Shown here in pieces: positions 7,157 through 50,177 of a DNA stretch of 64,000 nucleotides (position 1 is its first letter; every line of letters starts with the position of its first letter). The stretch covers positions 25,777 to 89,776 of the forward strand of contig CAZDPS010000001.1 in NCBI GenBank assembly GCA_964507615.1, given 5' to 3'. Source of the stretch: an uncultured Candidatus Saccharibacteria bacterium (GTDB taxonomy: Bacteria; Patescibacteriota; Minisyncoccia; Phycocordibacterales; DATDWN01). A program made the position numbers and the translations under genes. The notes under the pieces are model-generated. The model was not told the DNA's origin and did no database searches. It saw nothing but the letters and a program-made list of their open reading frames with translations.

Positions 7157-7285
7157 GTTAGCTCGGAGGATTTTTCGCGAAGGTCGCGTATAAAATTCGA
7201 GCAAGCGAGGAGCCGTACAATGGTACGGTGACGAGAATGCGAGGATTTTAGACGATGAGATTCGTGAAAAAGACCCGAGCGACTA
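7157..7285 (+). repeat. Family A imperfect palindromic intergenic repeat, copy A1
   Basis: Boxes aaggtcgcgtataaaat ... gaggagccgtac-aatg-gtacggtgacgag ... attttagacgatgagatt; related copies at 19041, 28488, 55436. Confidence 0.7.
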
Positions 7286-7753
7286 CCAAGCGAAGTGAGC
7301 AAAAGCTTTGTTAGCCTCCGCCATCTTGTGAGTATCCTCTCTCTTCTTAACTGCCTTACCTTCGTTTTTTGAAGCTAGTATTATTTCATCTGCTAGACGA
7401 GTTGCCATAGGAGCTCCCTTTCCATCTCGAGCTGCGTCAATAATCCATTTCATAGATAAAAATGATCGTCTTTCTGGTCTTACTTCTCTTGGAATTTGGT
7501 AGTTAGCACCACCAACGCGTCTTGAACGAACTTCTGTTAAAGGTCCTGTATTTTTCAAAGCTGTATCAAATACTTCCATAACATCCTCTACTTTTGCCTT
7601 TTCTTTAACCATTGTTAGTGCTTCGTAGACGATTTTCTGAGCTGTAGCTTTTTGACCACGCAACATAACGTAGTTGATAAATTTACCAATCTTTTCTGAA
7701 CCATATTCATGGTCTTTGCCTACTATATTTCTGTTTGTAACTTTTCTTCGCAT
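7283..7753 (-). CDS. rpsG: 30S ribosomal protein S7
   Basis: 156 aa; MRRKVTNRNIVGKDHEYGSEKIGKFINYVMLRGQKATAQKIVYEAL... typical S7; follows rpsL. Confidence 0.95.
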   Translation of the reverse strand: MRRKVTNRNIVGKDHEYGSEKIGKFINYVMLRGQKATAQKIVYEALTMVKEKAKVEDVMEVFDTALKNTGPLTEVRSRRVGGANYQIPREVRPERRSFLSMKWIIDAARDGKGAPMATRLADEIILASKNEGKAVKKREDTHKMAEANKAFAHFAW

Positions 7754-18160: not shown

Positions 18161-18850
18161 CTAGCAGGCGGGCTTGCTTGCGACTTCTTCCGTCGCGAAG
18201 GCGGCTGGGGTCAGTTGCGGGAGAACGAAGCGACGCCCGTAGCCACCGTACCAGACGTAGGCGTCGGACAGCCGGCGAGCTTGGACGTCAAGGCCATCAG
18301 GGTGGACGCTCACGCCCGCAACGAAGAACCCGTTGCCCTCCTTCAGGAGAAAGAAGGTCCCGTAGCCGTCTTTGCGGAGCCAGCCCCGATGAGTCTCCAC
18401 GAAGGAGATCACTTGGTCCTGGGTCAGGACCAACTTGTCTAGATCTGCGCCGAGACTGTTGTAGATGTCGGTGAAGTCGCCATCGCGAACGAGCTCATGG
18501 ACTTCGACGTCCGTGTCGGGAGTTGCCACCCCCTCCACATCCAAGCCGTAGTTCACGAAGTCGCGGTCGATGTAACCCCGAAACACCTTGTCGACCTTGG
18601 CGATCGTTCGCTGGCCGGAGCATTCGGAGATGGTGAGCTTCGTCCCACCCAAGATGAGGCGGAGGTAGGGTTGAATTGTGAAGATCGGCTTTGGCTTCGG
18701 CACAATGTCCGCCTCGCCATCGAGGTAGGTCTTGACCATCCGAAGACGACCACCTTGACCGAGCAGGGTCACCTGTGACGGAGTGAACCCGTCTTCCTCT
18801 AGGCGATCCGACAACCACTTCATTTGATCGATTGTGTAGAGTGAGGACAT
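18161..18850 (-). CDS. Hypothetical protein (229 aa), GC-rich island 3
   Basis: Only frame with normal amino-acid composition in the GC-rich block; start taken at MSSLYTIDQMKW; C-terminus AYVWYGGYGRRFVLPQ resembles the island 4 protein. Confidence 0.65.
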   Translation of the reverse strand: MSSLYTIDQMKWLSDRLEEDGFTPSQVTLLGQGGRLRMVKTYLDGEADIVPKPKPIFTIQPYLRLILGGTKLTISECSGQRTIAKVDKVFRGYIDRDFVNYGLDVEGVATPDTDVEVHELVRDGDFTDIYNSLGADLDKLVLTQDQVISFVETHRGWLRKDGYGTFFLLKEGNGFFVAGVSVHPDGLDVQARRLSDAYVWYGGYGRRFVLPQLTPAAFATEEVASKPAC

Positions 18851-39262: not shown

Positions 39263-39304
39263 TCCTCAAGCTTACAGTTTTTAAAAATTTTATTTGCGCA
39301 ATTC

Positions 39305-39330
39305 AAAAAACACCCTCTCGGGTGTTTTTT
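39305..39330. terminator. Bidirectional terminator
   Basis: aaaaaacaccc-tctc-gggtgtttttt. Confidence 0.75.
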
Positions 39331-39332
39331 GA

Positions 39333-39722
39333 TTATTTTAATTTTTTAGCAAGCTCTGCTGGAGAAGAAACTATTTCTCGAAAAAAAACGTGTCTACATA
39401 ATTCTTTATCATCTCCACTCAAAGCATAGATTGGTTTACCTAACGCAATGGCATACCCTATTTCTAAAGTGGTACTATTACCAGAATATCCATCTTTATT
39501 ATACACAAAAACAACATCTGCCATTTTAATTTTATAAAAATGATCGTGACTAAGACCAAGTGCAATAAATTTTTGGTAGTCCGAAGACAATTTTTCCCAC
39601 TCATCTTGTCCAGAATGTAGAAAAGGTTCATACACAACAACACCTAATTTTCTTAAGCGTTTAGAGAATTCTCTTATTTCTGGTTTAAAACGTCGGCTGC
39701 CACACATTACAACTGTTTTCAT
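39333..39722 (-). CDS. Nucleoside 2-deoxyribosyltransferase-like protein (129 aa)
   Basis: Rossmann-like MKTVVMCGS... and GNSTTLEIGYAIALGKPIY resemble the NDT-like fold; weak assignment. Confidence 0.5.
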   Translation of the reverse strand: MKTVVMCGSRRFKPEIREFSKRLRKLGVVVYEPFLHSGQDEWEKLSSDYQKFIALGLSHDHFYKIKMADVVFVYNKDGYSGNSTTLEIGYAIALGKPIYALSGDDKELCRHVFFREIVSSPAELAKKLK

Positions 39723-39888
39723 ATTAATGTAATATATCAGATGCTTCGCAAAATTGGAAAGTCGAAGCCAGATAATTCCGTTTTCGTCAAAACGAACAAG
39801 TCGGTCAGGAATAATTTTGATTCCGCCAAATCAAAATTTTCACGACCCTGACTCGCGATCCATCGTGCTCGATGGGTACCCCGCTCCG

Positions 39889-39935
39889 TCTTTCGACTCT
39901 CCACACAAAGCTATGCTTTGCTCATCCCGCACAAT
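39889..39935 (+). repeat. tRNA-Gly 3'-end-like fragment X1
   Basis: tttcgactctcc (T-loop-like) + hairpin caaagc/gctttg + ctcatcccgcacaat; compare tRNA-Gly(UCC) 3' end gagttcgactctcccatcccgcaca. Confidence 0.55.
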
Positions 39936-39999
39936 ATAAAACCGGCCTATGCCGGTTCTTTATTGTGTGCAGGTTATTGTATGAAGTTAGAACCGATAT

Positions 40000-40794
40000 T
40001 TATACAACATAATTACCTTTATGGAGCTTTTGAAGTTCATCTGGTTTCGCATAGAACACATTCGTTCCTTGTCGGAGACAAACACGGCCCTCGTACTGAT
40101 AAATGTTTTTCCTGTTCCAAGGAGGAATAGAAATGATAATTATTTTATGTCCTATCACATCGTTTTCAGTAATTTTTACAGTTAGAGAAGGAGATATTGT
40201 GTTACGTATACTGTTTCGGAGTGATTGATCTAGTTTTTGCCTAGAAATATCTGAATTACCAATCGTGCCATCGTCTTCTACTCCATAAAATATATATCCA
40301 CCATCTTTTGTATTTGCAAAAGCACATATTTCTTTAGATAAGACTTTCATTTCCACTCCTGCTCTTTTGAACTCATAAAGTTGATCTTCGCCGTTATTTT
40401 TACATATGTCTAGTATTTCCGGCGCAGACAAAACACGCATTCCTCGAAGTGTGCCCGTCTTAAATTTTTTATTTATATCCTTGTCAGGTTTAGGTAATCT
40501 GGTTGGATCTTGAAAATATGATTCTGACAAATGTTTAAGAAGTGGGACTTTTTCATAAACTAGTGAGTTTTCTTTCTTTATGACTTTACCGTTTTCATCT
40601 TTAATAAAATCAATTAATTCAAGGTCTCTTAACATTTGGAGACCTTTAAGAGTGTTTGCTTGTGAACTGCCTGTTTTCCTAGCAATTTCCTTAGCTGAAC
40701 GCTTACCATTTATCAACTTAAAGTAAGCAGCCCTCTTTTTTGAGCCATTTATAATCAATCTTGCTCTAGATACCAGTTCTTGAAGAGTATTCAT
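40000..40794 (-). CDS. Winged-HTH plus AlbA_2/Schlafen-type domain protein
   Basis: N-terminal wHTH (KRSAKEIARKTGSSQANTLKGLQMLRDLELI); C-terminal EDQLYEFKRAG...ICAFANTKDGGYIFYGVEDDGTI typical of AlbA_2. Confidence 0.65.
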   Translation of the reverse strand: MNTLQELVSRARLIINGSKKRAAYFKLINGKRSAKEIARKTGSSQANTLKGLQMLRDLELIDFIKDENGKVIKKENSLVYEKVPLLKHLSESYFQDPTRLPKPDKDINKKFKTGTLRGMRVLSAPEILDICKNNGEDQLYEFKRAGVEMKVLSKEICAFANTKDGGYIFYGVEDDGTIGNSDISRQKLDQSLRNSIRNTISPSLTVKITENDVIGHKIIIISIPPWNRKNIYQYEGRVCLRQGTNVFYAKPDELQKLHKGNYVV

Positions 40795-40806
40795 CTATAA
40801 AATATA

Positions 40807-41016
40807 TTATTTATTTTTTACTTTACGACTTAAATGTAAGTGTACCGCTATAGTTTTAGGAGGAATGCTTAAGAAATTGGATATTTCTAGATTTGTAAAA
40901 CCAGCTAAATTTAGTTGATGCACTTTTTCTGCTATGGTTACTTCTTTGATAGAATTTAAGAGAATCATTGCAAGAATATTTTCAGTTCTACTAACAGCTG
41001 TTTGATTTTCTTTCAT
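40807..41016 (-). CDS. Small HTH protein, paralog 4 of 4 (69 aa)
   Basis: ...LAGFTNLEISNFLSIPPKTIAVHLHLSRKVKNK; start trimmed to MKENQ; 1 nt from the upstream paralog. Confidence 0.6.
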   Translation of the reverse strand: MKENQTAVSRTENILAMILLNSIKEVTIAEKVHQLNLAGFTNLEISNFLSIPPKTIAVHLHLSRKVKNK

Positions 41017-41017
41017 G

Positions 41018-41218
41018 TTATTTGTTTTTTTTACTTTGAATAAGGAGAGATGACACATTTTTACTTTGAATATTGGTGTACATTGCTATCTTAGCCACAG
41101 AAAATCCTGCTTCATATAGTTCCATAACAATATCTTTCTTTGTCCTAGAACCTTTAAAAGCCCAAACTATAAGTTTTGCGAGATCTGTAAAAATACCGTC
41201 TTTTTCTTCATTTTTCAT
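41018..41218 (-). CDS. Small HTH protein, paralog 3 of 4 (66 aa)
   Basis: ...EAGFSVAKIAMYTNIQSKNVSSLLIQSKKNK. Confidence 0.6.
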   Translation of the reverse strand: MKNEEKDGIFTDLAKLIVWAFKGSRTKKDIVMELYEAGFSVAKIAMYTNIQSKNVSSLLIQSKKNK

Positions 41219-41222
41219 ATTT

Positions 41223-41423
41223 TTATTTGTTATTTTTTCTAATACTATGAAGTGCTACACTTACGGTGTTTGAGCTTGTGTTCAAAAGCTCAGATATCCT
41301 CTTGGGTGAGAAGCCAACTTTGTCGAATTCCGCTATAAGCGTAGACTGAGTTCTGTCTCTTTTTACAAGTATGGCGAGCAAACGTACAATTTCTTTTTGT
41401 GTTTCTAAAATTTCTTTATCCAT
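41223..41423 (-). CDS. Small HTH protein, paralog 2 of 4 (66 aa)
   Basis: ...KVGFSPKRISELLNTSSNTVSVALHSIRKNNK. Confidence 0.6.
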   Translation of the reverse strand: MDKEILETQKEIVRLLAILVKRDRTQSTLIAEFDKVGFSPKRISELLNTSSNTVSVALHSIRKNNK

Positions 41424-41424
41424 G

Positions 41425-41637
41425 TTATTTTTTTCTATTTATTGCCTTAACAACTGTATCTGATTTCTTTCCTAGTAGTTTAGCAATTCTACTGGGAGCT
41501 AGGCCGGCATTATTAAGAATAATTTCAACCCTTTCCTTCTTGCTGGGGTCTGAAGCATGTTCCACTTGATAAGCGATTAGAGCTATAAGGGCTCCGAGCT
41601 TCTCATCTATACTCCTTAACGCATTTAGATCATCCAT
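41425..41637 (-). CDS. Small HTH protein, paralog 1 of 4 (70 aa)
   Basis: ...NAGLAPSRIAKLLGKKSDTVVKAINRKK. Confidence 0.6.
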   Translation of the reverse strand: MDDLNALRSIDEKLGALIALIAYQVEHASDPSKKERVEIILNNAGLAPSRIAKLLGKKSDTVVKAINRKK

Positions 41638-41986
41638 ATTGGTGGATCTTAGCTAATAAGAGGACATGTTATATAAAATCATCCTACGAGTCAAGCTATT
41701 CTGGTGTTTATGTCCTTTAGTACTAAGAATCTAGCATATTAGAGTGTTATTTGTGGCCATATTATAAAGAATTTGACTTAGTAAGTTTTTTGATTCATAG
41801 CTGCCCAGTATATTATTTTTGGTTATAACCGCACAAAAAATACACAATTCTTTGTGTTTTTCAATATGAAATCAGCATTTACGTCTAAAAACGTTTAGTC
41901 TTCTGTATTTCTATATAACAAAGGTATAACCGCCGAAAATCGTTGTAGATTCAGACACTATCAGAAAAACGTTAGAAATTTCTACT

Positions 41987-42144
41987 ATTGTGCGGGATGG
42001 GAATCTAAGCCCGTATAATTTTTTCGCCGTCGCTCAAAAATTTACGTTGGCCTCACCTCGACCGTTTTGCTTGGTAGCAAAACATGTCTCCGGTCAGTTC
42101 GACTCTCACACAAGAGTGTGCAGACACTCTTGTTCCATCCCGCA
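41987..42144. repeat. tRNA-Gly-derived composite (fragment X2 plus inverted acceptor copy)
   Basis: attgtgcgggatggga (41987-) is a direct copy of the tRNA-Gly 3' end (minus sense); cagttcgactctc + hairpin + ccatcccgca (42095-42144) is the same motif on the opposite strand; the ends can pair (gcgggatgg/ccatcccgc). Confidence 0.55.
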
Positions 42145-42173
42145 AAAAAGAGCCCTGAGGCTCTTTTTTTCTG

Positions 42174-42244
42174 TGCGGGATGGGAGAGTCGAACTCCCCA
42201 CCACAGTTTGGAAAACTGTTATTTTACCGATAAACTAATCCCGC
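42174..42244 (-). tRNA. tRNA-Gly (anticodon UCC)
   Basis: Cloverleaf by hand: acceptor gcgggat/atcccgc, anticodon stem acagt/actgt, loop ttTCCaa, T arm gggag-ttcgact-ctccc; no encoded CCA. Confidence 0.85.
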
Positions 42245-42301
42245 AATAAAACCATATTATCAGAAAAATGAACAACAAGCAAAAAATGTTATAATCACCT
42301 T

Positions 42302-43411
42302 ATGATTCTCAGACTTGCTACCATTTTAATATTGTCATATGTTTTTATGTTTGGTCTTTGGTCTAAACCTGTTTCTGCACCTTTTATAGAGAAAAACAAT
42401 ACTGAAATAGTAGAGATTATACCCATAGCCACAAGTACAGAAAAAATTATCGCTGAAAAACCAAAAGACGGGCAGGCCACTACCACCAAAAAAGTAGTCA
42501 TCAACAAAAAACCAGTAGCTACTACCACCCCGGTAATACAAAAAACCACAACACCAGAACCTGAACCAGATTTTGAGTTAATAAATACAACGGCACGATT
42601 ATCTATCGTCAATATTCTTTGCACAGCCAAAAACAATGATCTGTCCCCTATTTCTGGTACAGGTATTGTGATCAGTCCAGATGGACTCATTCTGACAAAC
42701 GCCCACGTCGCTCAATATTTACTACTGAAAGACTTGTATCAAAAAGATTTTATTAGTTGTGTGATAAGAACTGGTAGCCCCGCCTACCCAAGATACAACG
42801 TAGAACTTGTTTACATTTCTCCACTCTGGATAGAAAGCAATAAAACAGAAATAAAATCACAAAACCCACAGGGTACAGGTGAGAACGATTATGCCTTCCT
42901 ACGCATCACAGGAGGCATAGATGGCTCTGCTTTGCCTGGTTTACCTTATTTACCACTTAATATTCGTGAAAAAATAGACTTAGGAGAACCTGTGGTTCTA
43001 GTGTCATACCCAGCTGGTTTCCTAGGAGGACTTTCGATACTTCAGGGACTAAGTATTACAAGTGCAATAACTATAATTCAGGATATATTTACCTTTAAAG
43101 AAGGAACCATAGATGTTATAGACGTCGGAGGAACTGTTGTGTCTCAAAAAGGGGCATCAGGAGGAGCTGTGGTAGACAAACAAACAACTCTTATCGGCAT
43201 AATATCAACCAGCACAAATGGTGCCACCACAAGCAGTCGCGAATTAAACGCAATTACATTAAGTTATATAAACAGAGTCTTTAAAAATGAATCTGGCATC
43301 ACTATTCCAGAGCTAATATCAAGTAATTTGGCAGATTTTGCAAAGGTGTTCCAAGAAACAGTTGCTCCAGGCCTCACAAAAACTCTAACTGATATAATAA
43401 TTAAAAACTGA
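42302..43411 (+). CDS. Trypsin-like serine protease with N-terminal membrane anchor
   Basis: GTGIVISPDGLILTNAHV (His), NDYAFLRI (Asp), KGASGGAVVD (Ser). Confidence 0.8.
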   Translation: MILRLATILILSYVFMFGLWSKPVSAPFIEKNNTEIVEIIPIATSTEKIIAEKPKDGQATTTKKVVINKKPVATTTPVIQKTTTPEPEPDFELINTTARLSIVNILCTAKNNDLSPISGTGIVISPDGLILTNAHVAQYLLLKDLYQKDFISCVIRTGSPAYPRYNVELVYISPLWIESNKTEIKSQNPQGTGENDYAFLRITGGIDGSALPGLPYLPLNIREKIDLGEPVVLVSYPAGFLGGLSILQGLSITSAITIIQDIFTFKEGTIDVIDVGGTVVSQKGASGGAVVDKQTTLIGIISTSTNGATTSSRELNAITLSYINRVFKNESGITIPELISSNLADFAKVFQETVAPGLTKTLTDIIIKN

Positions 43412-45169: not shown

Positions 45170-45311
45170 ATAATATTGCAAAAACACGTAGTGTTTTGTC
45201 TCTGGCAGGAATCGAAGCCCAATTGAGATATTTTATGAGTAAAATGAAATAAAATATCTCAATTGGGGTACTGATCCTGTAAGGATCGATTCTTTTAAAT
45301 CCGAAGCCACA

Positions 45312-47955: not shown

Positions 47956-48888
47956 TTAGTGATTTTTATTATGAAACTTTTTGTGTATATCTTTCAAGTG
48001 TTTATCCGTCACGTGTGTATATATCTGAGTGGTCACAATACTTGAGTGGCCTAAAAGAGCCTGAACTGAACGTAAATCAGCACCGTTTGAAAGCAGATCT
48101 GTAGCAAATAGGTGACGCATTGTATGCGGTGTGACTTTTTTTGAAATTCCTGCCTTTGTAGCGTGTTGTTTTACGATTCTTTCTATTGACCTTTTGTCCA
48201 AGAAGCCAAAATTTCTCGTACTGTTTTTATTAAAATTTTTAGCATCAATAGGAACAAAAAGTGCATCGCTTATATCTTTGCGAGCCTTCAAATAATCTCC
48301 AACACACTTTTTGGCATTATCAGAAAGGAAAACAACTCTAACTTTTCCACCCTTACCACGAATAGACAGTTCATCGGACTTAAGGTTTATATCGGAAGTC
48401 AGGGAACATAGTTCGGAAACACGAAGGCCGGTAGAAAATAGTAGTTCAAGAATAGCTTTGTCACGCAAATCTTTTAAGCTAGTGCTATTTGGAGAATCGA
48501 GTAGTCTCTGTAACTCTTCCTGGGTAATAAGGTCAAGCGAGCGTTCAGATGTTTTGGCCAATTCTATACGCTCTGCGGGAAGAGTTTTGATCTCTTGTCG
48601 AGCAAGATATTTTAAGAAAGCCCGAAGTGCGATGAGATAATAGTTTTGTGTTTTTTTGGATAAAGTTTCTGATTCAGCCTTTTTGTGCCCCGTCAGTTGG
48701 CGATTAAGCCATAGGCGGAACTCGCGAACAGAGGTGTCTGTTATGCTTGCAGGATTATCGTTTTTGGTAAAATCAAGAAAACGAGAGAGGTAGTGGTCGT
48801 AGTTCTCGACAGTTTTCATAGAACGGCCTTTTTCTATCTCTATATACTCCAAAAATTGTTGTTTGAGTTGTTTCAGACCTCGAGCCAT
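47956..48888 (-). CDS. Tyrosine recombinase XerC/XerD family
   Basis: SAM-like N domain; R...HTMRHLFATDLL...LLGHSSIVTTQIYTHV catalytic motifs. Confidence 0.85.
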   Translation of the reverse strand: MARGLKQLKQQFLEYIEIEKGRSMKTVENYDHYLSRFLDFTKNDNPASITDTSVREFRLWLNRQLTGHKKAESETLSKKTQNYYLIALRAFLKYLARQEIKTLPAERIELAKTSERSLDLITQEELQRLLDSPNSTSLKDLRDKAILELLFSTGLRVSELCSLTSDINLKSDELSIRGKGGKVRVVFLSDNAKKCVGDYLKARKDISDALFVPIDAKNFNKNSTRNFGFLDKRSIERIVKQHATKAGISKKVTPHTMRHLFATDLLSNGADLRSVQALLGHSSIVTTQIYTHVTDKHLKDIHKKFHNKNH

Positions 48889-49939: not shown

Positions 49940-50066
49940 AAGTAGCCACTAGGCATGTCGCCTGGTGGCTATCGTCGGGAAAGCGGCTGGCAACCACTCC
50001 GAGGGTGGTGTTGGAGAGCTCGACAGCCCTTTTCAACACCACCCGCAGGGGTCAAGTTCTTTTTTA
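49940..50066 (+). ncRNA. Candidate GC-rich sRNA of about 125 nt (unclassified), island 7
   Basis: TTGACC-17-TACATT at 49910-49938; hairpins tagccactagg/cctggtggcta (49943-49971) and gggtggtgtt/aacaccaccc (50003-50044); ends in T6; no ORF. Confidence 0.45.
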
Positions 50067-50087
50067 TACTTCTGCATTTTTATGCGC

Positions 50088-50122
50088 AGTCGGTACCTAC
50101 ATGGTAACCGACTTTTTTCGTA
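50088..50122 (+). terminator. Intrinsic terminator
   Basis: agtcggtacc/ggtaaccgact stem followed by tttttt. Confidence 0.65.
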
Positions 50123-50177
50123 TATCTGAACACTAAATTTCTATTATTATAGAAATATCTGATATAATATCTACAAA

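Follow-up and report, generated by a model that had tools for sequence, protein, structure and literature searches.

Folded, protein-less elements with tRNA-copied arms are stacked behind a tRNA-Gly gene in Parcubacteria

Islands, prophages, and CIMEs at tRNA and tmRNA 3' ends, which depend on tyrosine integrases and grow by tandem accretion, target the 3' part of tRNA genes and regenerate the tRNA. The inserted DNA is bordered by direct copies that extend from the T-loop to the 3' end, one tRNA carries a stack of several units, and the accessory cargo is missing from relatives. The same traits are found at the tRNA-Gly(UCC) locus described here, where the cargo is an HTH/AlbA_2 operon; the locus lies in a 64-kb stretch (64,000 nucleotides, hereafter the window) of a 789-kb Parcubacteria genome. 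In contrast to islands and CIMEs, none of the units here contains or adjoins an integrase. They may measure only ~150 nt, they add a hairpin-split inverted copy of the target and a conserved folded core, and one core family serves many different tRNAs. RtT repeats (rttR, RF00391), located behind E. coli tyrT-tyrV, are repeated non-coding units that each carry a direct copy of the tRNA 3' end. The elements of the present locus are likewise non-coding, directly 3' of a tRNA gene, and equipped with a direct copy of its 3' end, but the Rfam scan of the region (39300-42500, E values up to 10) returned, beyond the tRNA, only weak, chance-level matches to a few sRNA models. RtT is confined to one operon, and its repeats are not known to have an inverted arm or a conserved multi-hairpin core.

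Other likenesses lie with repeats and recombination sites that are not tied to tRNAs. REP/BIME/REPIN, Correia (CREE), ERIC, and RUP sequences share with the elements described here a protein-less, hairpin-rich, multi-copy makeup of 100-200 nt, a location just past genes and beside terminators, and a modular mosaic structure; they may combine a mobile origin with an RNA-level function. Unlike these repeats, the present elements have arms copied from each individual target and a strict tie to tRNA gene ends, whereas a terminal inverted repeat of their own, a fixed short target duplication, and a RAYT/Y1 link are lacking. Integron attC sites and the forked-hairpin attP sites of XerCD-using filamentous phages are recombined as folded single strands (PMC3458562, PMC5027507, PMC3089051). 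In such sites, two inverted core-site copies fold within one strand and imitate a double-stranded partner, an arrangement that the present elements resemble, as they do in conserving structure over sequence, in their extrahelical bases and branches, in their cassette-like arrays, and in the post-integration order of target, short spacer, inverted copy, body, and direct copy. In contrast to attC, the elements have neither an integron integrase nor the R''/R' consensus (RYYYAAC, GTTRRRY). Moreover, the target is a tRNA end rather than attI or dif, and the centre is a conserved three-hairpin core rather than a variable spacer. Finally, template switching during replication creates and extends hairpins (PMC8794818), and the perfect inverted duplication of flanking sequence around an existing hairpin, variable in length, is also seen here. 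Template switching is, however, a mutational process and not an element, and by itself explains neither the conserved cores nor their distribution.

Repeats at the tRNA-Gly locus exceed chance. The 9-mer CATCCCGCA has four exact copies within 2.3 kb of the locus and one elsewhere in the genome, and TTCGACTCTC has three copies genome-wide, all confined to the locus. An earlier note on this DNA had described an intact tRNA-Gly(UCC), a direct partial copy of it, two opposite-strand copies with a T-loop-like stretch and a hairpin, and inverted repeats of 13-14 nt around a regulator segment. All of these features are present. The tRNA lies at 42173/4-42244 on the minus strand (ARAGORN; Rfam tRNA model, 61.7 bits), and what the repeats copy is its 3' end (T-loop to discriminator plus CA). 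All 14 nt of the direct copy TGTGCGGGATGGGA (41989-42002; repeat D14) are identical to 42172-42185. The inverted repeat pairs CATCCCGCACAATA (39923-39936) with TATTGTGCGGGATG (41986-41999) at 14/14 positions (repeat I20); by our own estimate, ~0.03 perfect 14-nt inverted repeats are expected by chance per 4 kb. The opposite-strand copies at 39889-39935 and 42095-42144 have TTCGACTCTC, an inserted hairpin, and CATCCCGCA in common. These two copies, to which the earlier note had restricted the names X1 and X2, are merely the tRNA-proximal arms of elements of ~150-190 nt, both on the minus strand: X2 spans 41989-42143 and X1 spans 39740-39933. The conserved cores of both, a decayed direct copy at the far end of X1, and a degenerate direct copy at 39964-39997 had been overlooked.

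The locus consists of four units stacked behind the tRNA-Gly 3' end. Read along the minus strand, the first comprises hp0 and X2. The GC-rich hairpin hp0 (42144-42170, no strand assigned) is identified from the sequence between tRNA-Gly and X2; it is preceded by an A-run and followed by a T-run and therefore looks like a bidirectional terminator. The proximal arm of X2, T' (42097-42143; repeats I19 and I25), contains the inverted acceptor 3' strand (42135-42143) and the T-loop/T-stem (42097-42107), separated by hairpin hp3 (42111-42132). It is followed by the structured core (42004-42097; 98.5 bits with covariance model R1, and covariation), which is built of P1, an invariant C-GGA-G / C-GA-G internal loop, and the long hairpins hp2 and hp1. 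The distal arm T (41989-42002) is the 14-nt direct copy of the tRNA-Gly 3' end (TCCCATCCCGCACA; D14, I20) and doubles as one arm of the 14-nt inverted repeat. Next comes a conserved flank (41857-41988) with 80-83% blastn identity to relatives G027 and G022; in relatives, it is positioned after the last tRNA-Gly-end repeat, and the flanks of G047 and G040 start with the same ATAGTG. Degenerate T-arm-like motifs (GCGGTTATA; repeat D16) occur inside this flank (41925-39) and just below it (41824-38).

The flank leads into the HTH/AlbA_2 cassette (39998-41856), delimited by Pfam matches, a promoter scan that found promoter-like sites, and absence from relatives. It holds four small HTH genes (41425-41637, 41223-41423, 41018-41218, and 40807-41058) and a wHTH-AlbA_2 gene (40000-40794), all on the minus strand. 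Just past the AlbA_2 stop codon, the degenerate direct copy of the tRNA-Gly T-arm and acceptor (ATCGGTTCTAACTTCATACAATAACCTGCACACA; 39964-39997, minus) closes the cassette. A second terminator-like hairpin, hp0' (AACCGGC..GCCGGTT; 39928-39970, no strand assigned; sequence and terminator scan), whose stem reaches out to GCACAATA / TATTGTGTGC, opens X1. The proximal arm T' of X1 (39890-39933; sequence and repeat search) contains an inverted acceptor copy (39921-39933), hp3 (39904-39920), and an inverted T-loop/T-stem (39890-39902); its hp3 sequence, CAAAGCATAGCTTTG, is common to tRNA-Gly partner elements of same-genus genomes. The X1 core (39800-39893; R1, 64.8 bits) is of a subtype also found beside tRNA-Arg(tct) on contig C29. 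The tail (39740-39799) consists of an extra hairpin (39770-39799) and the decayed direct tRNA-Gly 3' copy (39740-39769), in which 16/23 positions match and 4/7 mismatches are C-to-T; same-genus orthologues have intact direct copies at this place. The tail overlaps a promoter-like site of the downstream deoxyribosyltransferase gene, which makes up the fourth unit and beyond which lies HU.

X1 and X2 belong to a large family of folded elements without protein genes, which occurs in Parcubacteria and is uncatalogued. The family, defined in this analysis through covariance model R1, has a common layout in which a terminator-like hairpin is followed by an inverted copy of the adjacent gene end, a ~95-nt core, and often a direct copy. 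The R1 model finds 457 copies in 61/63 genomes of the taxonomic family, at 0-22 per genome; the present genome has 13-14 and contains additional element types besides the R1 core. By blastn, X2-like sequence occurs in 49/63 of these genomes, with copies in other genera being 80-84% identical over nearly the full length. When 300 more genomes from the phylum were sampled, nine had a match, six of them in the same order or class. Both X2 and X1 score on the minus strand, and X2 has the expected hairpin and inverted copy near the tRNA end (~100 nt) directly; X1 retains its hairpin and tRNA-Gly-matching inverted arm, with 2.2 kb of inserted DNA now lying between X1 and the tRNA.

The core folds as a single strand, namely the tRNA-sense strand. 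Across 109 copies, 98.2% of cells pair, compared with 42-51% when the partner is slid, all 27 core pairs show changes on both sides, and none of 500 shuffles attained the observed values. In the tRNA-sense strand, G:U outnumbers A.C by 80 to 18, an excess that points to one folded strand. The GA-type internal loop is invariant, a bulged A is kept in both long hairpins, and the core 3' end has the consensus ..GAC(C)ACA, matching the GCACA with which tRNA genes end. The hp0 loops (CUGC) are conserved among copies at different tRNAs. Identity between copies within one genome (0.667) is at the level of random pairs (0.658), and the nearest relative of a copy lies in another genome for 88/93; there is thus no sign of recent within-genome bursts. 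At certain tRNAs, copies have been retained in more than one genus. The lack of bursts and this retention, which count against insertion, fit a selected function equally well or better than selfish spread.

Most elements lie close to a tRNA gene end, and their arms track tRNA identity. Among 93 copies, 56 lie 28-92 nt past a tRNA 3' end on the same strand, and a further 21, oriented on the opposite strand, are 45-47 nt away from a tRNA 5' end; ~83% fall 28-92 nt from the end of a tRNA gene. Of the elements, 53% have an inverted copy of 8 nt or longer (8% with mismatched tRNA ends) and 27% have a direct copy of 8 nt or longer (6% with mismatched ends). The arms follow the Gly, Leu, Arg, Ser, Met, and Ala tRNAs, at all of which the hairpin-split inverted layout recurs, and inverted arms are found behind many tRNA genes of this genome and related ones. 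Arm lengths range from 4 to 26 nt, direct copies reaching 26 nt at other loci. The palindromes are perfect and take in the locus-specific spacer between tRNA end and hp0, with stems of up to 22-25 bp in G058 and G016. That both arms match each new tRNA is not accounted for by a simple crossover within T, which is a point against insertion. So is the occurrence of long hairpins into gene ends without a core: an empty rpsI site has such a hairpin reaching into the rpsI stop region, and part of T' may therefore arise in place.

Several described identities do not apply to X1 and X2. The earlier note had raised the possibility of pseudo-tRNAs, but ARAGORN, which finds only four true tRNAs, and the Rfam tRNA model, which matches 42174-42244 alone in the region even at E up to 10, are blank there on both strands. 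Neither are they tmRNA (ssrA) or a 3' fragment of it, as RF00023 has no match at the locus; smpB and the tmRNA 5' part with the tag ORF sit at the end of contig C24. No described RNA family in Rfam 15 comes near its gathering score, and across the whole 64-kb window only tRNAs exceed theirs. An identity as integron cassettes or attC sites finds no support either: the arms are tRNA-derived and vary from tRNA to tRNA, and the sole tyrosine recombinase is Xer-like.

Judged by synteny, the stretch between HU and tRNA-Gly is an insertion hotspot. The conserved order is RNase Y, HU, a gap, tRNA-Gly, and an S1 peptidase. G037, G040, and four metagenome contigs have nothing in this gap and so provide the empty site sought among related genomes; elsewhere, the gap is occupied by other element types or other gene cassettes. 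For example, in the nearest relative, G028, tRNA-Gly and hp0 are 99% identical, yet a different element comes next. A ~32-nt degenerate tRNA-Gly copy closes cassettes in four genomes, and the different cassettes behind tRNA-Gly in G010, G022, and G027 terminate in the motif seen here at 39964-39997. The 2-kb HTH/AlbA_2 operon is a foreign cassette lodged at this hotspot. The AlbA_2 protein and the operon are absent from the other 62 genomes of the family, whereas the same operon occurs downstream of tRNA-Gln, where it adjoins a partial tRNA duplicate, and of tRNA-Glu in other Parcubacteria. As in a tRNA island, direct 3'-end repeats stand at both borders (41989-42002, exact; 39964-39997, degenerate) and the cargo is missing from relatives that have empty sites. 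In contrast, no integrase lies in the segment or at its border: the five genes encode HTH or AlbA_2 proteins (Pfam), as the earlier note had seen, and the only PF00589 gene of the genome is of Xer type (47956-48888), 5.7 kb away. The tRNA-Gly 3' end has been used repeatedly as an insertion site, with direct partial copies marking the boundaries of inserted units; of the scar of integration and inversion that had been proposed, repeated tRNA-end insertion is upheld and inversion is not.

On balance, it is somewhat probable that the folded units and the stacked gene cassettes are non-autonomous insertion modules. Entry would proceed by recombination within the short tRNA-terminal segment T, a part of the proposal that is plausible but held tentatively. 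A host or transient recombinase, or homologous recombination following DNA uptake, could be responsible for this step, which would regenerate the tRNA and leave T as a direct repeat. In single-stranded form, T' would pair either with T or, across hp0, with the tRNA end to give a duplex copy of the target, and the arms could also supply the homology for exchanging one element for another at a given tRNA. A point against this proposal is that the elements have neither a recombinase nor a transposase linked to them.

A less probable but substantial alternative is a role as functional RNAs or as cis-acting RNA modules that are individually matched to one tRNA, with mobility being secondary or ancient. 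The tRNA-sense core would be a protein-binding scaffold closed by T' and T with a copy of the acceptor/T helix ending in ACA, like tRNA genes. Enzymes that act on tRNA ends (RNase P, RNase Z, the CCA-adding enzyme, RNase III) could process such an RNA, or else it could pair with the tRNA 3' half through T'. Such a function is consistent with the very strong covariation, the strand-specific G:U wobble, the invariant internal loop and bulged A residues, the match between the core 3' consensus and tRNA-gene ends, the absence of bursts, and the upkeep of elements at the same tRNA across genera in streamlined genomes of 0.6-0.9 Mb. In G058, the arms covary with each other (GGGACGG / CCGTCCC) although the tRNA differs, meaning that the closing helix itself is under selection. 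However, the core lies downstream of a strong hairpin-plus-T-run terminator with no space for its own promoter, and in 23% of copies it is divergent from the tRNA, so that co-transcription would yield the opposite strand. tRNA occupancy varies widely among species of one genus, element types replace one another, and no Rfam family matches. The tRNA-hp0 spacer, moreover, is mirrored base for base past the expected transcription stop, which points to DNA-level copying. The arms might, though we consider this rather unlikely, have originated locally, through template switching or fold-back synthesis that took place at stable hairpins as the DNA was replicated or repaired. In this scheme, the terminator hairpin would be extended outward, copying the tRNA end backwards as T', and T' would be copied backwards to close the core as T, with no recombinase and with cores as older residents or separate insertions. 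Template switching, a published route for making and keeping perfect stems (PMC8794818), would accommodate the perfect palindromes with their locus-specific spacers and 22-25 bp stems, the variable arm length, and the core-less rpsI hairpin, but leaves unexplained the same core families behind dozens of different tRNAs, the tRNA-end copies closing gene cassettes at the same site, and the shared hp0 loops.

Two further explanations involve named enzymes. That the elements are miniature IS200/IS605-type or REPIN-like single-stranded DNA elements, moved in trans by RAYT-like Y1 (HUH) transposases, inserted 3' of the tRNA-terminal CACA, and ending in CACA themselves, is very improbable. In favour, the elements have strand-specific hairpins near both ends and no coding capacity, their 3' terminus (..GAC(C)ACA) is similar to the GCACA at the end of the target, and 35/63 genomes of the family encode Y1 transposases. 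Element numbers, however, do not track these genes (rho -0.06 across 63 genomes): the present genome has 13 elements and no PF01797 match, G036 has 22 elements and no Y1, and G015, with four Y1 genes, lacks elements altogether. No element adjoins any of the four best-scoring Y1 genes, and target-derived arms of up to 26 nt are foreign to the IS200/IS605 family. We give hardly any credence to the reading in which 39936-41986 lies between inverted att-like sites and either can still invert or records a past inversion, flipped by a site-specific recombinase such as the Xer-type enzyme, for all that a perfect inverted repeat surrounds the segment and a tyrosine recombinase gene is 5.7 kb away. The arms of this repeat are ordinary parts of two separate elements, in a family whose standard layout includes an inverted tRNA-end copy; the repeat is T of X2 facing T' of X1, most likely a by-product rather than a switch, and extends only 3 nt beyond tRNA-derived bases. 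The recombinase looks like a single housekeeping Xer, Pfam reveals no invertase inside or next to the segment, promoters and terminators suit the present orientation, and at three independent loci the operon points the same way with respect to its tRNA.

Beyond insertion as such, the elements may be nucleic-acid-guided modules without protein genes, in which T' is a re-writable guide pairing with the tRNA gene or the tRNA 3' end; we regard this broader reading as speculative and improbable. In a DNA version, the folded single strand would present a duplex copy of the target and be inserted or exchanged behind any gene with an acceptor/T-arm-like end, both arms being rebuilt from the new target. 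In an RNA version, each tRNA would have a matched partner RNA whose closing helix and ACA tail imitate a tRNA end and recruit tRNA-end enzymes. Neither version, if true, would have a counterpart described so far in bacteria. The element family accounts for many contig breaks and "tRNA fragment" calls in metagenome-assembled genomes, and it should be masked before tRNA fragments are interpreted as inversion sites or as scars of integration. Parcubacteria are symbiotic, naturally import DNA, and have genomes among the smallest and most streamlined in bacteria; nonetheless, many of their tRNA genes are trailed by one or two conserved non-coding folded modules tailored to the tRNA. If these modules are mobile, they would offer a route for adding DNA, including cassettes of the HTH/AlbA_2 type, behind tRNA genes without a resident integrase, which bears on gene exchange in Parcubacteria. 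If they are RNAs, they would point to a level of tRNA handling so far unrecognised in this major lineage of uncultivated bacteria.

tRNA-Gly(UCC), at 42173/4-42244 on the minus strand, lies in a genome of 789 kb in 37 contigs with ~37% G+C, and the names attached to homologues of the genome's proteins are Parcubacteria names. The repeats that the earlier note described around this gene are real. The exact 14 nt of the tRNA 3' end recur at 41989-42002 as a direct partial copy, and the inverted repeat flanking the regulator module is perfect over 14 nt (39923-39936 versus 41986-41999). The two opposite-strand stretches, here X1 (39740-39933) and X2 (41989-42143), each contain TTCGACTCTC, a hairpin and CATCCCGCA when read on the plus strand. 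In whole-genome counts, TTCGACTCTC is confined to the tRNA-Gly locus, and the 9-mer CATCCCGCA occurs four times there and once elsewhere. Searches with ARAGORN and Rfam identified neither X1 nor X2 as a pseudo-tRNA and gave no Rfam match to either.

X1 and X2 belong to a family of folded elements attached to tRNA ends. When 41980-42150 was searched by blastn against the taxonomic family (63 species genomes), 49 genomes matched, with near full-length X2-like copies of 80-84% identity in other genera and several occurrences per genome of a shorter internal core, often close to contig ends. The match loci examined adjoin a tRNA gene (Gly, Leu, Arg, Lys, Ile, Ala or Met). Read in the tRNA sense, the tRNA is followed by a terminator-like hairpin with an A-run ahead and a T-run behind (hp0), an inverted copy of the acceptor 3' strand, an inserted hairpin (hp3), an inverted copy of the T-stem and T-loop, the conserved core and, at many loci, a direct copy of up to 26 nt of the segment from the T-loop to the 3' end. 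The inverted copy is designated T' and the direct copy T. The arms are derived from the target and vary with tRNA identity; the core is homologous across tRNAs. X1 has the same build, and its subtype is also found beside tRNA-Arg(tct) on contig C29. This contig was considered as a small circular element, as ARAGORN wrapped a tRNA-Arg across its ends, but it carries ordinary chromosomal genes (pilM/N/O, ruvX). Most tRNA genes of the lineage, genome-wide, terminate in GC-A-CA without an encoded CCA (e.g., 42172-42176), and a minority encode ACCA; the ACA ending also closes the elements.

This architecture changes the reading of the locus. The opposite-strand copies are not the products of an inversion, since elements of this family normally carry such an arm, a tRNA end in inverted form split by a hairpin. 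T of X2 and T' of X1 face each other to form the 14-nt inverted repeat, which reaches just 3 nt past the tRNA-derived bases. An invertible segment is likewise very unlikely: the repeat consists of the arms of two separate elements, and no invertase was found. Integration at the tRNA-Gly end, as originally proposed, holds for the direct copies and the operon.

The tie to tRNA ends is quantitative. A covariance model of the ~95-nt core (R1) finds 13-14 copies in the genome under study and 457 copies in 61 of the 63 family genomes (0-22 per genome); in a further sample of 300 genomes from the phylum, nine have a match, six of them in the same order or class. Among 93 strong copies, 56 have a same-strand tRNA 3' end 28-92 nt upstream (median 45), and another 21 have an opposite-strand tRNA, almost always tRNA-Lys(UUU), with its 5' end 45-47 nt from the core. 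Of the remainder, most neighbour tRNA fragments or occupy a single conserved site without a tRNA, right after rpsI. Calls of "tRNA-Stop(tta)" beside elements proved to be tRNA-Lys(UUU) genes in the wrong register. Exact inverted copies of the tRNA end of at least 8 nt accompany 53% of 60 copies on the 3' side, compared to 8% with mismatched tRNA ends, and direct copies of that length accompany 27%, compared to 6% in the control. For at least nine of the 41 tRNAs of the genome, the end recurs exactly, inverted and over at least 8 nt, within 110 nt, where fewer than one such tRNA is expected by chance.

The same frame is used by several other core types. A second element type lies directly behind tRNA-Arg(UCG), at 45170-45305 on the plus strand, where a copy of the T-arm in inverted orientation (GGCAGGAATCGAA) accompanies a perfect 17-bp AT-rich hairpin and a GGGGTACTGATCCTGTAAGGATCGATTC module; its frame ("type E") is also found behind tRNA-Val, Ala, Tyr, Ile, Gln, Leu and Lys genes of the genome. 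Short core variants occur upstream of tRNA-Ile(GAU) (C2:~880-1146) and tRNA-Asn (C6:~18190-18451), and ahead of each stands a degenerate direct repeat of the tRNA 5' part together with ~10 nt of upstream flank; therefore, gene starts, and not just ends, can be duplicated. At C10:17384-18043, an ORF for an 82-aa GIY-YIG nuclease lies between a partial 5' copy of tRNA-Lys(UUU), with a GC-palindrome insertion (CCTGCCTGCCGGCAGGCAGG) in its D-loop, and the complete tRNA-Lys, with R1 elements on both sides pointing outward. At C7:~50050-50130, rpsI is terminated by a long hairpin, its stem beginning in the last codons of the ORF (GGTCAAAAC...GTTTTGACC). The element is absent there, and three genomes of the same genus have an R1 core precisely at the 3' foot of the equivalent hairpin.

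The core has a conserved secondary structure, a single-strand fold under selection. In an alignment of 22 cores, the consensus comprises a 3-bp helix (P1), an invariant internal loop (C-GGA-G / C-GA-G) and two long hairpins, each with a bulged A, and double changes occur at 19 of 27 pairs. R1 gathered 109 copies for pairing statistics, in which 98.2% of cells pair, a share that drops to 42-51% if the pairing partner is shifted by 1-3 columns; changes on both sides are seen at all 27 pairs, and none of 500 shuffles matched the observed values. The modelled strand has 80 G:U pairs versus 18 A.C pairs, an asymmetry to be read with the alignment having been fitted to a model built in the tRNA sense. 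The fold is therefore assigned to the strand that has the tRNA sense; in the window, X1 (39800-93) and X2 (42004-97) both have it on the minus strand. A plus-strand RNA gene for X2 has a good fold (z = -7.3) and a terminator after it, but the wobble asymmetry across the 109 copies favours the minus strand. A K-turn, C/D-box or H/ACA-like core is a remote lead at best, given that the 3x2 GA loop departs from the K-turn consensus and the C box is absent.

The tRNA-Gly end is an insertion hotspot whose content turns over between species. The order RNase Y, HU, gap, tRNA-Gly and S1 peptidase is kept within the genus and in another genus. The comparison of relatives suggested in the earlier note yielded the empty site: the gap is practically empty in two genomes (G037, G040) and in four metagenome contigs with the order tRNA, terminator, HU. 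Five genomes carry an X1-type element in the gap (G016, G029, G025, G038, G007), four carry a very different "type C" element (G028, G033, G026, G010), and composites of these elements or protein-coding cassettes also occur. In the nearest relative, G028, the tRNA and hp0 are 99% identical and the type C element takes the place of X2. A metagenome scan with the tRNA-Gly 3' end for near-identical strains returned more distant lineages only.

Gene cassettes are stacked with the elements at this site. Cassettes in G010, G022 and G027 close with a ~32-nt degenerate copy of the tRNA-Gly T-arm and acceptor, and the same motif lies behind the AlbA_2 stop codon at 39964-39997. G027 and G022 also conserve the 130 nt distal to X2 (41857-41988), placed in those genomes behind the last such repeat; with X2 absent, the tRNA-Gly end would directly adjoin ATAGTAGAAATTTC. 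From this motif and flank, the locus is read as four units, counted from the tRNA: hp0, X2 and T; the conserved flank, four HTH genes, the wHTH-AlbA_2 gene and a degenerate T; a second terminator-like hairpin (hp0'), X1 and a decayed T; and a nucleoside deoxyribosyltransferase gene followed by HU. The usual partner of tRNA-Gly is an X1-type core in the genus under study and an X2-type core in other genera. X1 may therefore have been in place first, with X2 and the operon entering between it and the tRNA afterwards. The decayed direct copy of X1 overlaps a promoter-like site at 39731-39760 on the minus strand (TTTCCA, 18 nt, TG..TATATT), which lies ~10 nt ahead of the start codon of the deoxyribosyltransferase gene. 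Downstream genes may receive promoters from element tails; promoter-like sites in this region show no excess over shuffled sequence.

The operon is cargo of foreign origin. For the wHTH-AlbA_2 protein, the other 62 family genomes gave no homologue at E < 1e-10, and other Parcubacteria-group metagenomes gave hundreds, at 50-63% identity. The same arrangement, four to five small ORFs followed by AlbA_2, occurs in two homologue contexts, one downstream of tRNA-Gln and adjoining a partial tRNA duplicate with inserted hairpins, the other ~2.5 kb downstream of tRNA-Glu; in both, the operon has the orientation of the tRNA. The operon, at 40000-41637 (minus strand) in the window, is a conserved accessory module in Parcubacteria-group metagenomes. 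The module comprises four to five HTH-like ORFs of 54-78 aa and, behind them, a wHTH-AlbA_2 protein of ~260 aa, and one archaeal (Micrarchaeota) homologue was recorded. A HEPN_Swt1 protein follows it in one context, an HNH nuclease is nearby in another, and GIY-YIG genes also adjoin tRNAs near AlbA_2 operons on other contigs. The operon may be defence-related.

Taken as a whole, we lean slightly towards a family of folded tRNA-tail elements with a foreign operon stacked among them at the tRNA-Gly end. How the elements enter is more tentative, and insertion by recombination at T is plausible without being the probable route. A circular or folded single-stranded element would recombine with its target inside T, and the product would read target, spacer hairpin, inverted copy, body and direct copy, which is the observed layout. 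Folded-strand sites of such logic are used by integron attC and Xer-dependent filamentous phages (PMC3458562, PMC5027507, PMC3089051). The Xer-type gene at 47956-48888, recorded earlier as the nearest recombinase, is the sole tyrosine recombinase of the genome. hp0 was considered as an Xer/dif-like core site and set aside, as its arm sequences differ between copies.

Several points argue against a simple mobile element. Divergence between copies of one genome matches that of random pairs, and a copy mostly has its closest relatives outside its own genome; long hairpins reaching into a gene end also occur at core-less sites, such as the empty rpsI site of the genome; no enzyme linked to the elements was found; Y1 transposases neither co-occur nor co-vary with them; and the spacer beside hp0 is mirrored base for base, suggesting fold-back or template-switch copying (PMC8794818). 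A primarily RNA-level function, with the element as a tRNA-end mimic ending in ACA or as a partner RNA pairing with the tRNA via T', is for these reasons a serious rival. It is countered by the strong terminator that precedes the core and by copies oriented divergently at tRNA-Lys, and we rate it somewhat below insertion by recombination. Insertion by recombination and an RNA-level function are not mutually exclusive. A divergent or permuted tmRNA was first suspected because ARAGORN gave no tmRNA; this reading was rejected, since the end of contig C24 carries smpB and the 5' part of a tmRNA, tag ORF included, and the acceptor copy at the locus lacks the G3:U70 pair. The tmRNA gene (C24:~7220-7474) stands behind smpB, is cut by the contig end, has a predicted tag ending in ...ANGFALAFA, and was overlooked by ARAGORN and RF00023 at normal thresholds.

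A full-text literature search gave no description of the element family. The nearest kinds are tRNA-targeting integrative islands and CIMEs, folded-strand recombination sites, REP/BIME/Correia-type repeats and the RtT repeats behind E. coli tyrT; with each, some features are common and others are not. The locus adds negative tests for Y1 transposases and extra tyrosine recombinases, quantitative evidence on the fold of one core type and on its strand, and a clear case of gene cassettes stacked with elements at one tRNA.
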